A stretch of DNA of 64,000 bases from NCBI GenBank assembly GCA_045648965.1, contig JAZRPA010000026.1, positions 9,451 to 73,450 of the forward strand, read 5' to 3'. The translations under genes and the position numbers were made by a program. This DNA is from Alistipes sp. (lineage in GTDB: Bacteria; Bacteroidota; Bacteroidia; Bacteroidales; Rikenellaceae). Below, in pieces: positions 1,301 to 56,904 of the stretch. Within the stretch, counting starts at the first letter, position 1; each line of letters opens with the position of its first letter. The notes under the pieces are model-generated. The model worked only from the letters and a program-made list of their open reading frames with translations, was not told where the DNA came from and made no database searches.

Positions 1301-3976
1301 ATGGGAAACGATAAGAAGATACGCCTTATACGAGTTGCAAAGGAGTTTAACGTTGGTTTGAACACCATCACAGACTTCTTGCACCGCAAGGGCATCGAGA
1401 TTGACTCGTCGCCGAACACACAGATTGACGCCGACACCTACGCCGTTTTGGAGAAGGAGTATGGCAAGAATCGTCCTAGCGGTAACGAGCTCGACTCTGT
1501 TCGCGAGAAGATAAACAAGAAACCATCAGTAAGCATCGAGCCTGAGGCTAAGCCAAAGAAGGAGAAGCGCGTAATCGAGGTTAAGGAGGAGGTTGTACAG
1601 CCTAAGATCATCGGTAAGATTGACCTCGAGCCTAAGAAGAAGGTTGAGGTGGCACCAGAGCCAAAAGTTGAGCCTAAAGTAGAGGCACCGAAGGTGGAGT
1701 CTCCGAAGGTAGAGGCTAAGCCCGCACCACAGCCAAAGGCAGAGGAGCCAAAAGTTGTAGCAGAGGTAAAGGAGGAGCCTAAGAAGCAGGATGTATTCCG
1801 TGCTACCGAGGCACCTACCCTCGCGGGCCCACAGATTCTCGGCACAATGGACGTTTCGGGAATGGTTGCAGGTGGCAAGCGTCACCGCAAGCGTTTGGAG
1901 AAGGCTAAGGTCGATATTTCGAAGCAGCAGAACAACGCTCCAAAGGGCGAGAAGGGTCAGCAGAATGACAAGAATAAGTTCAACAAGCAGAACAATAACC
2001 AGAACCAGCAGAACCAGGGCGGTGGCAAGAAGAACAAGCAGAAGCCACAGCCAAAGCCAATCATTCGTCCGGAGGTGAGCGATGAGGAGGTTTCGAAGCA
2101 GGTGAAGGATACCTTGGCACGTTTGACTGCCAAGGGTGCAAAGAATAAGGGCGCGAAGTACCGTCGTGAGAAGCGCGAGGAGGTACGTGAGCGTATGAAT
2201 GAGGCTTTCGAGCAGGAAGCAGCAGAGAAGAAGATCCTCAAGGTTACCGAGTTCGTAACCGTAAGTGAGGTGGCAACAATGATGAACATCTCGCCTATGG
2301 AGGTTATCTCAGCATGTATGAACCTCGGCTTGATGGTATCTATCAACCAGCGTCTCGACGCTGAGGCCTTGGTTGTAGTTGCTGAGGAGTTTGGTTTCTC
2401 GGTTGAGTTCGTATCGGCAGAGATTCAGGAGGCTATCAACGATGAGGAGGCAGATACTGCAGAGGATTTGCTCCCACGTCCGCCAATCGTAACCGTAATG
2501 GGTCACGTAGACCACGGTAAGACATCGTTGCTCGACAACATTCGTAAGACAAACGTTACTGCAGGCGAGGCGGGAGGTATCACCCAGCACATCGGTGCAT
2601 ACTCGGTGAACCTCAATGGTCAGAAGATTACATTCCTCGATACTCCGGGTCACGAGGCGTTTACAGCGATGCGTGCGCGTGGTGCTAAAATTACCGACGT
2701 TGCCATCATCATCGTTGCAGCGGACGACCGTGTGATGCCACAGACTGTCGAGGCTATCAACCACGCACAGGCTGCGGGTGTACCAATGGTATTTGCAATT
2801 AACAAGATCGATAAGCCACAGGCTAACCCTGACCACATCAAGGAGCAGCTCTCGCAGATGAATCTCCTCGTGGAGGATTGGGGCGGTAAGTACCAGAGCC
2901 AGGACGTTTCGGCAAAGCAGGGTCTCAACCTCGACAAGTTGCTCGAGAAGGTGCTCCTCGAGGCCGAGATGCTCGACTTGAAGGCTAACCCTAACAAGAA
3001 GGCCAAGGGTACCGTTATCGAGTCTACATTGGATAAGGGTCGTGGTTACGTTTCGACCGTTCTCATTCAGGAGGGTACACTCCACATCGGTGATGTAATC
3101 CTCTCAGGTATCTACACCGGTCGTGTTAAGGCTATGTTCGACGAGAATGGTAAGAAGGTTACCGAGGCAGGCCCTTCGACACCTGTACAGTTGCTCGGTC
3201 TCAACGGTGCTCCACAGGCGGGTGATTCGATTAACGTGATGGACGATGACCGCTCGGCTCGTGAGATTGCAAACAAGCGTGAGCAGTTGCAGCGTATGCA
3301 GGGTATCATGACCCAGAAGCATGTAACACTCGATGAGATTGGTCGTCGTATCGCTATCGGCTCGTTCAAGGAGTTGAACATCATCGTTAAGGGTGACGTG
3401 GACGGTTCGGTTGAGGCTATGTCGGGCTCGCTCATCAAGCTCTCGAAGGAGACCGTTCAGGTTAACGTTATCCACGCTGCGGTAGGTCAGATTTCGGAGA
3501 GCGACGTATTGCTCGCTGCTGCTTCGAACGCTATCATCGTAGGTTTCCAGGTACGTCCATCGGCTGCGGCACGTAAGGTTGCCGAACAGGAGGAGATCGA
3601 GATTCGTCTCTACTCTATCATCTACGACGCTATCAACGATATCAAGGATGCTATCGAGGGTATGTTGGAGCCTGTGATGAAGGAGGAGATTGTATGTTCG
3701 ATCGAGGTACTCGAGACCTTCAAGATTTCGAAGGTTGGCACTATCGCCGGAGGTATTGTGCGTGAGGGTAAGATTACCCGCAACACTCCAGTCCGCGTAA
3801 TTCGTGACGGTATCGTTATCCACACCGGTCGCTTGGGCTCGTTGAAGCGCTTCAAGGACGATGTTAAGGAGGTTACTTCGGGTATGGATTGCGGTTTGAA
3901 CATCGAGTCGTACAACGATATCAAGATTGGCGATATCATCGAGGGATACGAGCAGGTTGAGGTAAAGCGCAAGTAG
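1301..3976 (+). CDS. infB: Translation initiation factor IF-2
   Basis: G-domain motifs [20 protein letters not shown]; long Lys/Pro/Glu-rich N-terminus; 891 aa. Confidence 0.99.
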
Positions 3977-3990
3977 TGCGTTTTACCTTG

Positions 3991-4029
3991 AATGCAAAAT
4001 GCAAAATGCAAAATGCAGAATTCAAAATT
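3991..4029 (+). repeat. Heptamer tandem array (AATGCAA x3, AATGCAG, AATTCAA)
   Basis: Read directly; same unit as 1218-1249. Confidence 0.85.
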
Positions 4030-53647: not shown

Positions 53648-53662
53648 TATCTTTGCACTCGC
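53648..53662 (+). promoter_or_regulatory. tRNA-Met promoter
   Basis: TATCTTTG followed by CACTCGC, 21 nt before the tRNA. Confidence 0.75.
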
Positions 53663-53676
53663 TTTCGAGCAATAAT

Positions 53677-53750
53677 GGCGGGATAGCTCAGCTGGTTAGA
53701 GCGCATGATTCATAATCATGAGGTCGAGAGTTCAAGTCTCTCTCCCGCTA
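53677..53750 (+). tRNA. tRNA-Met (CAT), probably elongator
   Basis: Cloverleaf GGCGGGA...TCCCGCT-A; anticodon loop TT-CAT-AA; T-loop GTTCAAGTC; CCA not encoded. An Ile2 assignment cannot be excluded without a model. Confidence 0.9.
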
Positions 53751-53751
53751 C

Positions 53752-54035
53752 AAAAGGAGTGATTTTTCACTCCTTTTTTTTGTAGCGGGGAGAGACCTTG
53801 TGTTACCCACCCCCTAAATCCCCCTCCTGTGAGGGGGACTTATTTTTTTTATAAACTGCTATAAAAAAGATTTAGGAGCGATTTTATCACTCCTATTTTT
53901 TTTGTAGCGGAGAGAGACGAGTGTGTTACCCTCCCCCTAAATCCCCTTGACTTCGTCTTCTTCCTTGCGGCCCGGCAAAGTGTGTAAACCCACTCTGCTC
54001 TCACTCCGCTGCGTCAGTCCCTGTGAGGGGGACTT
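53752..54035 (+). repeat. Tandem duplicated unit: terminator hairpin + antisense tRNA-Met 3' end + REP-like element
   Basis: Unit 1 at 53752-53841; unit 2 at 53873-54035, with a ~71-bp insert in the REP. Confidence 0.8.
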
Positions 54036-54103
54036 TTTGCTTTTAGCCATTGTTTTTTTTGTTTTATAGGGACAATGGAGAGTTTAACGGAAAACGGAAA
54101 ACT

Positions 54104-54137
54104 GAGATTGCCACGTCACTTCGTTCCTCGCAATGAC
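54104..54137 (+). repeat. REP-like palindrome GAGATTGCCACGTCACTTCGTTCCTCGCAATGAC
   Basis: Resembles, from memory, a widespread GAGATTGC...CCTCGCAATGAC REP family; single copy in the window. Confidence 0.65.
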
Positions 54138-54403
54138 GACAAGAGGAGTATTTCACCTTTATGCCCTTAACGCCATTATTACACAACAGATATTTTTCCC
54201 ACGACAGATTCGAACGGGCGCAGCAGGTTTGAGCAGAGCAAGCGGAGAGATATTGGAGCGGAGGCGAACAACGAAGTTGCAGGGGTTGAGATGATAGTTG
54301 AAAAGAAAATTTATTTACTTTTTTAACTATCAGCGCAAGACCGACGATTGCATAGCAATACGCCTAGGCTACAATAGCGCCCGCGCAGATAACTCTGCCA
54401 CAC

Positions 54404-54469
54404 CGCCACCGACTGAACGAATCCTGGTATTACGACAAAAAAAGAGAGACAATTTCTTGTCTCTCTCTG
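54404..54469 (-). repeat. Terminator hairpin plus inverted copy of the tRNA-Pro 3' end and shared motif
   Basis: + strand 54418-54436 CGAATCCTGGTATTACGAC matches the tRNA-Pro 3' end at 17/19; AGAGAGAC/GTCTCTCT hairpin in between. Confidence 0.8.
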
Positions 54470-54544
54470 TCGGGATACCAGGATTCGAACCTGGGACCCT
54501 CTGGTCCCAAACCAGATGCGCTAACCGGACTGCGCTACATCCCG
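54470..54544 (-). tRNA. tRNA-Pro (TGG)
   Basis: CGGGATG...TATCCCG-A; anticodon arm TCTGG-TTTGGGA-CCAGA; CCAGG-TTCGAAT-CCTGG; promoter TACCTTTG at 54562-54569. Confidence 0.95.
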
Positions 54545-54743
54545 TTGTTGTATTGCGAGTGCAAAGGTAAAGCAAATTTTTTAATCTGCAAACTTTTTTC
54601 AAAAATTTTATCATTTTTTTCGCATCACCCCTATTTTATGCTCCATTTTCGACTTTGAGAACGAAAAATATCTGCCTTTTGCGATACAATGATAGAAAAA
54701 TTTGTTATATTTGTATAACCAAACAAAACTAACCGAATTAACT

Positions 54744-54953
54744 ATGGAAGGAAAAGTAAAGTGGTTCGACTCTAAAAAGGGCTACGGATTTATTATCGCC
54801 GAGGACGGCAAAGAGATTTTTGTACACTACACCGGTATCGTCAAGGAGGGCTTCAAGGCCTTGAACGAGGGTCAGCTCGTAACCTACGAGATTGGCAGCG
54901 GCGACAAGGGCGAGCAGGCTGTAAATGTACAGATTGTTCCGAAGGGCGAATAA
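54744..54953 (+). CDS. Cold-shock domain protein
   Basis: GKVKWFDSKKGYGFI, IFVHYTGI; TATATTTG promoter box upstream. Start moved to MEGKVKWF. Confidence 0.95.
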   Translation: MEGKVKWFDSKKGYGFIIAEDGKEIFVHYTGIVKEGFKALNEGQLVTYEIGSGDKGEQAVNVQIVPKGE

Positions 54954-54974
54954 TCTCCAATTTCGAACAAAAAG

Positions 54975-55006
54975 TGATGGGTATCGAAAGCGATACCCAT
55001 CTTCTT
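54975..55006. terminator. Bidirectional terminator between csp and the nucleoside permease
   Basis: GATGGGTATCG-AAAG-CGATACCCATC. Confidence 0.8.
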
Positions 55007-56627: not shown

Positions 56628-56698
56628 TGGGCTATGGTGTAATGGTAACACTACAGATTCTGGTCCTGTCATTCTAGGTTCGAATCCTGGTAGCCCAA
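56628..56698 (+). tRNA. tRNA-Gln (CTG)
   Basis: TGGGCTA...TAGCCCA-A; anticodon loop TT-CTG-GT; GGTTCGAATCC; promoter TACTTTTG at 56603-56610. Confidence 0.93.
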
Positions 56699-56717
56699 CT
56701 CAAGCGAAATGCAACGA

Positions 56718-56742
56718 CCTCTGCAATGCAGAGGTTTTTTTT
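56718..56742 (+). terminator. Terminator after tRNA-Gln
   Basis: ACCTCTGCA-A-TGCAGAGGT followed by a T run. Confidence 0.75.
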
Positions 56743-56904
56743 ATTTAGAAACAGCCTACACAACAGATATATTTGAAGTGGGCTGTTTTTAAATAAAGGT
56801 GGCTATGCAATAGACATCGTTGCATTTCGCTTGCAAATGTCAGCGGCGCCCTAGGAAAGGCGTTAAGCGGAGCAGACCAACGGTCTGCGTAGTAGCCAAT
56901 CCTG

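Follow-up and report, generated by a model that had tools for sequence, protein, structure and literature searches.

Inverted copies of tRNA 3′ ends behind tRNA terminators in Alistipes, tentatively read as the arms of palindromes built by template switching

Template switching creates or lengthens hairpin stems and homogenizes or expands the arms of inverted repeats (PMC8794818, PMC8604942, PMC13100816, PMC7202029), and at a larger scale it yields direct-inverted-direct triplications (PMC4689423, PMC10766183). Here we describe a stretch of DNA in which related processes may have acted on tRNA genes. The stretch, called the window below, is 64,000 nucleotides long and corresponds to C26:9451-73450 in the assembly of G000, an Alistipes metagenome-assembled genome (MAG) of 1.98 Mb in 26 contigs with ~49% G+C. 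It contains a tRNA(CAU) gene (the Met locus) that is followed by two tandem units; in each, a terminator hairpin precedes an inverted version of the tRNA 3′ end, after which comes a short repeat that we call REP (Table 1). We use the term mirror for a reverse-complement copy of a gene's 3′ end; X denotes the direct 3′ segment and rc(X) its mirror. G-numbers designate genomes, and L-numbers designate loci in other MAGs.

The mirrors share with quasi-palindrome template switching, as in the first four studies cited, a reverse complement that lies nearby, a lengthened inverted repeat, co-varying arms and the existence of orthologues with and without the copy. However, the mirrors affect a third of one clade's tRNA genes, often stop at one defined tRNA position and nearly always have a member of one of two repeat families as their border. 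Inverted triplications, including origin-dependent inverted-repeat amplification (ODIRA; PMC4689423, PMC10766183), also have a direct-inverted-direct order with junctions at short inverted repeats, here the terminator hairpin and the TTCGAA of the T-arm. By contrast, the copies at our loci measure tens of bases rather than kilobases, the third copy is mostly 4-11 nt long, the second junction always holds a repeat and no intact intermediate was found. The tandem inversion duplication (TID) of Salmonella is reportedly an inverted-triplication case that resembles this order. Integration into tRNA and tmRNA genes by tyrosine integrases, with its sublocation in the T-loop (Islander, PMC4383910), resembles our case in the T-loop boundary, in displaced tRNA 3′ fragments and in true direct-repeat cases at the same loci. 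Yet the Met-locus copies are in inverted orientation at distances of 30 and 150 nt from the gene, with neither an integrase nor cargo enclosed. The T-loop sublocation of tRNA-gene integration is said to have been set out by Williams in 2002.

In CTXphi attP(+) and integron attC sites, inverted target-like copies with a short spacer fold into a mimic of the target duplex, and once integration has taken place the site lies with its mirror at one end. At our loci only the geometry is seen, namely two inverted arms and a spacer, and each copy matches a different tRNA. REP/BIME (bacterial interspersed mosaic element) systems and the insertion sequences IS1397 and IS621, which target REPs or hairpins (PMC3184786), offer short extragenic palindromes behind genes and terminators in mosaic, tandem clusters. 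Unlike these systems, G000 has no RAYT (REP-associated tyrosine transposase) or Y1 gene, its REP has a low copy number (12) and each REP is fixed 2-5 nt after the 3′ arm of another hairpin. The RtT repeats of E. coli tyrT are structured repeats trailing a tRNA gene, but they are direct and related to the spacer, and they hold no antisense copy of the 3′ end. We found no description in the literature of antisense tRNA 3′-end copies behind tRNA terminators, including in Rikenellaceae, nor of REP or T1, the second repeat family. Thus, the ingredients (hairpin growth by template switching, extragenic palindromic repeats and T-loop integration) are known, and their combination and scale are new.

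Table 1. Coordinates of the elements at the Met and tRNA-Pro loci, numbered from the first nucleotide of the window
Feature	Position	Strand	Details
tRNA(CAU)	53677..53751	+	ARAGORN and Rfam; Met according to ARAGORN, elongator Met or Ile2
X	53732..53752	+	tRNA 3′ segment (T-loop C56 to discriminator + CA); inverted copy downstream
Terminator 1	53756..53781	+	Hairpin GGAGTGA-tttt-TCACTCC (53756-53773), then T8; A4 precedes the feature
Mirror 1	53782..53800	+	GTAGCGGGGAGAGAC(C)TTG; reverse complement of tRNA ~56-74 with one deletion and one insertion
REP1	53800..53850	+	GTGTTACCCACCCCCTAAATCCCCCTC-ctgt-GAGGGGGAC, then T-run, giving a terminator-like look
Direct remnant of tRNA end	53856..53862	+	CTGCTAT (7 nt; tRNA end CCGCTAC); heads unit 2
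Terminator 2	53863..53903	+	A6GATTT, imperfect hairpin AGGAGCGAT-ttt-ATCACTCCT (53874-53894), then T8
Mirror 2	53904..53918	+	GTAGCGGAGAGAGAC; with the preceding T, 53903-53918
REP2	53923..54036	+	REP split by an insert of ~70 nt (53947-54018)
tRNA-Pro	54469-54544	-	Convergent with tRNA-Met
tRNA-Pro module	54204..54468	-	Sister case of the mirror unit
tRNA-Pro terminator	54440-54468	-	
tRNA-Pro mirror	54418-54436	-	GTCGTAATACCAGGATTCG
tRNA-Pro T1 repeat	~54213-54417	-	Imperfect terminal inverted repeats
tRNA-Pro direct T-loop fragment	54204-54212	-	GTTCGAATC

The tRNA(CAU) gene has no encoded CCA, and a promoter box (TATCTTTG) occurs at 53648. The 3′ 17 nt of the tRNA are GTCTCTCTCCCGCTACA (53736-53752). 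When re-read, the sequences and coordinates of the mirrors and the tRNA end given in the first-pass annotation of the window proved exact to the base, as did its statement that each mirror departs from the perfect reverse complement by its own, different 1-nt deletion. Mirror 1, read as (T)GTAGCGGGGAGAGAC, spans 53781-53796, and with an extra C, CTTG extends it to 53800, the equivalent of T-loop C56. We also confirmed the tandem arrangement in units of ~120 nt with the mirror between hairpin and REP; the unit spacing is 120-123 nt. Both hairpins, together with their T8 runs, are predicted from sequence and fold to be intrinsic (Rho-independent) terminators. Terminator 2 is homologous to the sole terminator of tRNA(CAU) in G005, G001 and G013, and equivalents of the tRNA-end remnant at the head of unit 2 are found in G020 (CCTAC), G005 (CGCGAC) and L219 (TTCCGC). 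The insert that splits REP2 bears the end motifs of T1 (CTCTGCTCTCACTCCGCTGCG, then TCAGTC); a similarly long, split REP is present at C26:76129 and in G001.

The two mirrors exceed chance, since the corresponding 16/17-mer words, with up to two edits allowed, have no other site in the 1.98-Mb genome and the mirror score of 26 is reached by fewer than 0.25% of pairs of a tRNA with a foreign flank. Each is a reverse complement of adjoining sequence with single indels and a flanking terminator hairpin, as is characteristic of template switching. The tRNA 3′ end, hairpin, mirror and REP1 are found together on independent metagenome contigs, with unit 2 on separate contigs, and the arrangement recurs in many independently assembled MAGs; therefore, the units are not an artefact of assembly. 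A search with the covariance models of Rfam 15 yielded only the three tRNAs above threshold, and the mirror, REP and T1 gave nothing at E<=1 beyond chance-level matches. There is no integrase open reading frame (ORF) between 53752 and 54468.

The Met locus is one of many. We called the tRNA genes of the entire G000 genome using ARAGORN and compared the 3′ end of each gene with its own downstream flank; the null consisted of one tRNA paired with the downstream flank of another. This survey, which the first-pass annotation had proposed, revealed a mirror just behind the terminator in 13 of the 35 distinct tRNA genes (null 4.8%), with scores of at least 24 at nine tRNAs (null 0.25%). Weaker mirrors follow the tmRNA and one other RNA. 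Among 286 sites of G000 that combine a hairpin with a T-run, strong flank mirrors are almost confined to tRNA loci, so we rejected the idea that mirrors are a general property of terminators. Elsewhere they are rarer or absent: 4 of 28 tRNAs in G001, 0 of 31 in a congener with a 3.3-Mb genome and 0 of 25 in a genome of another family.

The neighbours of the mirrors fall into two classes, T1 at most loci and REP at others such as the Met locus. REP has the form of a short extragenic imperfect palindrome in many copies, of which 12 are in G000, 1-14 are in each of 8 of the 25 congeneric genomes that we compared, and more than 118 loci are in MAGs of Rikenellaceae, where REP is widespread in Alistipes, Tidjanibacter and other members. 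At more than 100 REP loci the repeat begins 2-5 nt past the 3′ arm of a hairpin, and many of these hairpins are long palindromes composed of a gene 3′ end, a terminator and a mirror. Mirrors on the REP side are 6-19 nt long and include a perfect copy of 17 nt of tRNA-Met (L227), copies of 11 nt of tRNA-Ser (L115, L196, L219) and several others of 6-12 nt. A RAYT as the driver of REP was rejected, as the Y1 domain (PF01797) has no match in G000 and the controls were positive.

T1 is a non-coding repeat of ~200-230 nt with at least 14 copies. At most loci, the mirror spans the discriminator to T-loop C56 (...GGATTCG), and the T1 left end, TTCAGTCGGTGGCGGTGTGGCAGAG, follows directly. [quoted passage not shown] T1 sits between rc(X) and a short X: beyond its right end is a direct T-loop fragment of the neighbouring RNA, i.e. 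TTCGACTCTCG at tmRNA, TTCGAGTC at Leu, Met and Asp, and TTCGAATC at the others. A target-site duplication of TTCG or TCG at T1 is possible but would look no different from the palindromic core of the T-loop itself. Of 49 exact T1 left ends in other MAGs, 38 come after a tRNA or tmRNA gene in the same orientation and follow a mirror that is decayed to a varying degree. The distance from the gene end is 52-83 nt for most of them, and the remainder are farther away by a repeat unit or an inserted element. We found no autonomous partner of T1, and a phage or virus origin was rejected when no match was obtained in 50,697 phage records or IMG/VR. Exact matches to the window's repeats come solely from MAGs of uncultured Alistipes, Tidjanibacter and Rikenellaceae, chiefly from ruminant guts. 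At C24:26303-26370, the terminator of a probably non-coding RNA is followed by a partial mirror (TTGCGAGTTTCTTCC versus GGGAACTCGCAA) and by a sequence that resembles the left end of T1.

Related genomes contain versions of these loci with and without mirrors. The Met mirror is present in seven of the eight REP-bearing congeneric genomes, and in none of the 13 others with a usable match at the locus. In G022, G023, G024 and G004 its absence was read directly from the sequences, and in nine further REP-less congeners the BLAST match stops at the tRNA end. T1 was found in six genomes, and five of these have REP too. Two units of mirror and REP are found at the Met locus of G020, and one unit in G013, G001 and G003, the hairpin of G003 being a different one. 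G005 has two units with the same two hairpin types as the window, but in reversed order, and in G014 an element of ~270 nt lies in the T-loop with a 30-nt direct repeat and a displaced mirror and REP. L219, a tRNA-Ser locus, has a two-unit layout like that of the Met locus in the window. Mirror-bearing and mirror-free orthologues share the terminator up to ...T6-GTC at tRNA-Pro and ...T7-GT at Met. For example, at Met, ...ATTTTTTTGT is followed by GCGCTATGG in G022, which lacks the mirror, versus AGCGGAGAGAGAC in G005.

The tRNA-Pro locus of the window extends this picture. Its terminator (AGAGAGAG...CTCTCT-T6-GTC) is orthologous in four species, of which G005 and G022 lack a mirror, G001 has a mirror without T1, and G000 has both. 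The mirrors in G000 and G001 share one mismatch and thus have a single origin. Since G001 has a cold-shock gene directly behind tRNA-Pro, the locus has been rearranged between species. In the window, the Rfam model of the cspA thermoregulator matches 54588-55005 weakly, with 31 bits and thus short of the gathering score; this match lies upstream of an ORF of 83 aa at 54702-54953. On the other side of the tRNA-Pro module, at 54090-54159, a GTCGTCATTGCGAGGAACGAAGTGACGTGGCAATC repeat lies beside GTTTTCCGTTTTCCG motifs; its summed contig depth was 2,000-4,000 in all four of four runs. This depth matches that of tRNAs, and the repeat is therefore very abundant across the community.

Weaker mirrors also occur behind a small-peptide gene with nine copies in G000. 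The family (~44 aa, MKKNILSYSAPEVNIYEVVAERGYSASTGTILPGFGSEEDDLIY and a stop) is found at C2:56717, C5:66525, C7:149101, C12:90986, C14:108, C24:125455 and C26:76175/83947/87881, all outside the window. It resembles precursor peptides, and homologues with variant C-termini occur in many Alistipes and Tidjanibacter MAGs. Behind most copies stand a terminator, then a mirror of the final ~13 nt, and then a REP. These mirrors co-vary with the last codons of each paralogue (GTTGACATACTAACAG/CTGTTGTATGTCAAC, GTTTATTTACTAAGAG/CTTTTAGTAAATAAAC), and a mirror that follows its neighbour's codons must have been copied from that neighbour, not imported from elsewhere. The genes for tRNA-Leu(CAG) (C3:103585-103667) and tRNA-Leu(TAG) (C3:108870-108953) are 5 kb apart in opposite orientation, and their modules of terminator, mirror and T1 are 96% identical. 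The mirror of the CAG gene matches the sequence of the TAG gene; thus, a module has been copied between the two Leu loci.

Modules are also reiterated at other tRNA genes, and T-loops receive other insertions. The tRNA-Arg locus of G001 has an array of two copies of X, trailer, mirror and T1; the displaced X (ATTCTG + 26 nt + CTCGGGGGGTAC) lies between the first T1 and the second trailer. In G000, the Val, Gln, Arg, Lys and Cys genes have received insertions that are directed to the T-loop and accompanied by direct repeats, and direct repeats of the tRNA 3′ segment are also found at His, Val and Cys. The genome has eight tyrosine recombinase genes, three of which adjoin tRNA genes, although not at the Met locus; examples beside tRNA genes are those at C24:2071, C9:52486 and C23:30422. 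The first-pass annotation had noted that mirror 1 corresponds to the sequence that integrases typically use as attB. The Met copies are inverted and are accompanied by a direct remnant of only 7 nt; therefore, they are not an attL/attR duplication. What holds of this idea is that true T-loop insertions with direct repeats exist at such loci.

Some further observations concern T-loops. A second small element of ~170 nt, ending in ...GGCGTTAAGCGGAGCAGACnnnnGTCTGCGTAGTAGCCAA, has inserted into the T-loops of tRNA genes and is accompanied by a directly repeated 3′ part of the tRNA; it occurs at ~56700-56900 in the window (downstream of tRNA-Gln, 56628-56699) and at C13:265, C19:264 and C24:4051. 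It displaces an older unit of X, terminator, mirror and T1, and at C19:264 the palindrome between the element and T1 is precisely deleted. Downstream of tRNA-Cys (C24:153711-153784) there is a tandem duplication of ~250 nt with a perfect 14-nt direct repeat at +250; it starts in the T-loop and takes in the 3′ end of the tRNA and its terminator as well as ~170 nt of flanking sequence. The sole reverse-transcriptase gene of G000 (RVT_1, 337-aa frame, C3:60747-61331) is located ~1 kb upstream of tRNA-Lys(CTT), whose T-loop has an insertion of ~230 nt with a displaced 3′ end that has its own mirror.

We favour, with less than even confidence, the reading that each mirror forms the right-hand arm of a DNA palindrome, which runs from X through the terminator hairpin and the T-run to rc(X). 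Template switching would have built these palindromes and repeats would then have colonized them, followed by reiteration. A nascent strand in replication or repair, having passed the terminator and T-run, would switch template at a microhomology of 2-3 nt (GT or GTC, complementary to the final bases of the tRNA), run back along the tRNA 3′ end as its template for 6-19 nt and return, so that an existing hairpin is lengthened in a quasi-palindrome event. Short non-coding repeats are found at the outer foot of the long hairpins and may have settled there because of them: REP lies 2-5 nt after the 3′ arm, and T1 starts from the mirrored C56 and has a short direct T-loop fragment on its far side. 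The module of X, terminator, mirror and repeat is seen reiterated beside tRNA genes, which could have come about by unequal or inter-genomic recombination, or by integration directed to the T-loop or 3′ end. The older copy would have been shifted downstream and its X trimmed to 7 nt, giving the tandem unit. T-loop-directed recombination at these loci would find an ideal pseudo-attB in a symmetric rc(X).X site.

The argument for local copying is that each mirror corresponds to the gene beside it, even where this gene encodes a protein, sits at GT or GTC after the T-run and, at REP loci, varies in length, and that the terminator exists with and without a mirror. The template would have been the gene rather than the mature tRNA, because mirrors lack TGG. 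A tRNA gene has two natural inverted repeats, one in the terminator and one in the T-arm around the palindrome TTCGAA, and these would account for the boundary at C56 as well as for the T-loop fragment on the far side of T1. The tRNA-Arg array of G001 and the 7-nt X remnant at 53856-53862 fit an inverted triplication; no intact second junction was seen. The first-pass annotation would have dismissed the pattern if it were limited to a few unconserved loci that template switching accounts for. The pattern turned out to be genome-wide and conserved, and hairpin extension by template switching is still the best account of its origin. The palindromes would need no function in this case, and the long hairpin that folding predicts for rare read-through transcripts would be a side effect.

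Several observations weigh against our preferred reading. Random template switching does not explain why the mirrors of 12 or more different tRNAs share one end point in the T-loop and are invariably joined there to the same left end of T1. Nor does it explain why mirrors are confined to the subclade that carries REP and T1 and are strongly enriched at stable-RNA genes. An intact rc(X).X palindrome, the intermediate expected of inverted triplication before T1 arrives, was not found in 3.3 Mb. tRNA-Pro has no A-run to pair with the T-run, which makes simple fold-back priming awkward, and the opposite order of the two Met hairpin alleles across species suits the accretion of modules better than local duplication. 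Finally, no mutator explanation was found. Exonuclease VII (ExoVII) is a known suppressor of template-switch events, and its loss as a mutator cause was rejected, because all 25 of 25 congeneric genomes have it.

Much of this could be accommodated, although we consider it rather unlikely, if the mirror belonged to a small integrative module that is non-autonomous, consists of X, terminator, rc(X) and repeat, and has a hairpin as its attachment region. In single-stranded DNA (ssDNA), X would pair with rc(X) and the terminal inverted repeats of the repeat would extend the stem, mimicking the T-arm/acceptor duplex; a tyrosine recombinase of the host or element would exchange strands in the T-loop, so that the old tRNA 3′ end and terminator are replaced and shifted downstream, and repeated integration would give tandem units. 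The tRNA-Arg array of G001 (tRNA, trailer, mirror, T1, displaced X, trailer, mirror, T1) has this form, the T-loop fragment to the right of T1 is that of whichever RNA gene is adjacent, and in a pairing made by hand the joined T1 ends continue the X:rc(X) stem with a T.T/T.T mismatch at 54-55 as the only interruption. The interchangeable order of the Met alleles, the lack of any rc(X).X palindrome free of interruption, the constant company of T1 or REP together with the restriction to one subclade, the real T-loop insertions with direct repeats and the eight tyrosine recombinases, three beside tRNA genes, point the same way. Yet the copies match their own tRNA; a module that moved to another tRNA gene would leave it chimeric and without function, unless both X and rc(X) were re-templated locally. 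Orthologous terminators with and without a mirror imply addition behind a resident terminator, and at the Met/REP loci the displaced X is only 4-7 nt and the mirror length is variable, unlike a fixed crossover site. Moreover, no free, phage or plasmid form was found and no autonomous parent element was identified. An inverted target-site duplication seems unlikely to us as well: REP and T1 would insert at the foot of a terminator hairpin or in the T-loop via a hairpin or folded-ssDNA intermediate. In this reading such an insertion, or recombination of a folded att site, would copy the host gene's 3′ end in reverse and so give each element its tRNA-complementary arm. Mirrors as primer-binding sites, with 18 nt complementary to the mature tRNA 3′ end, were rejected because they have no TGG to pair with CCA.

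Other explanations place the function in RNA. The first-pass annotation had suggested that the first mirror would unfold the tRNA in a read-through transcript, and folding of the precursor, as it had proposed, does predict such a switch: a transcript that ends at the T-run forms the cloverleaf and the terminator (-43 kcal/mol), and one that includes mirror 1 has a minimum free energy (MFE) of -56.8 kcal/mol (z = -6.4), with one long hairpin replacing the acceptor and T arms. There is no sign that this refolding is used, or selected at the RNA level, given that a canonical terminator precedes the mirror, that the spacer has no promoter box, that few mismatches are G.U and that relatives lack mirrors. 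We therefore doubt that the mirror is a selected fail-safe by which a read-through precursor becomes a long duplex that is degraded (e.g. by RNase III) or halts the polymerase, acting between convergent, highly expressed tRNA genes. The predicted switch itself would favour a fail-safe, as would the convergence of tRNA-Met and tRNA-Pro with four terminator-like hairpins between them and the retention of the mirror in seven species, even with the changed hairpin of G003. A 77-nt metatranscriptome contig that runs from the 3′ half of the tRNA through the terminator into the beginning of the mirror would also agree with it, but this contig, like all of the transcript fragments, which come from two metatranscriptomes only, is unstranded and may include DNA. 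The mismatches argue the other way: of 50 substitutions in 44 distinct mirror/tRNA pairs, 4 are G.U-compatible in the sense RNA, 15 in the antisense RNA and 31 in neither, and they cluster in the acceptor part. Near relatives with the same tRNAs and terminators do without mirrors, and mirrors also stand behind a peptide gene. Far less credible is that repeat and mirror form a guide-like RNA gene, in which a constant scaffold with ~18 nt identical or complementary to a tRNA 3′ end would be transcribed from either strand and lead a protein to that tRNA or its gene. Such a gene is suggested by the variable tRNA-matched segment beside an invariant motif of ~25 nt with a conserved hairpin (GCAGAG-nnn-TCTGC), which persists where the remaining T1 has been replaced (L088, L104), and by a perfect TAAATTTG box in A-type T1. 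However, the Bacteroidota -7 box TAnnTTTG is absent from both strands between the convergent tRNA-Met and tRNA-Pro genes, for which reason a small RNA with its own promoter in this spacer was also rejected. In addition, no Rfam family matches, G000 has no Y1 partner (the partner type searched), the Met mirrors adjoin REP instead of a T1 scaffold, and the guide segments have decayed in many copies.

The modules interrupt MAG assemblies at tRNA loci, and they may mislead programs that find genomic islands by displaced tRNA fragments. If hairpin attachment modules or inverted target duplication were the true explanation, a new mechanism of transposition or integration would be at work; inverted target-site duplication in particular would be an undescribed mode of site-specific mobility that uses tRNA terminators. 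If our template-switching account is correct, the tRNA genes of this clade would show cleanly how template switching builds long hairpins from functional sequence, and how small repeats and T-loop recombination then colonize and reiterate these hairpins. The clade would thereby offer a natural test bed for studying the origin of structured extragenic repeats, the tolerance of palindromes in Bacteroidota and the targeting of tRNA genes by mobile DNA.

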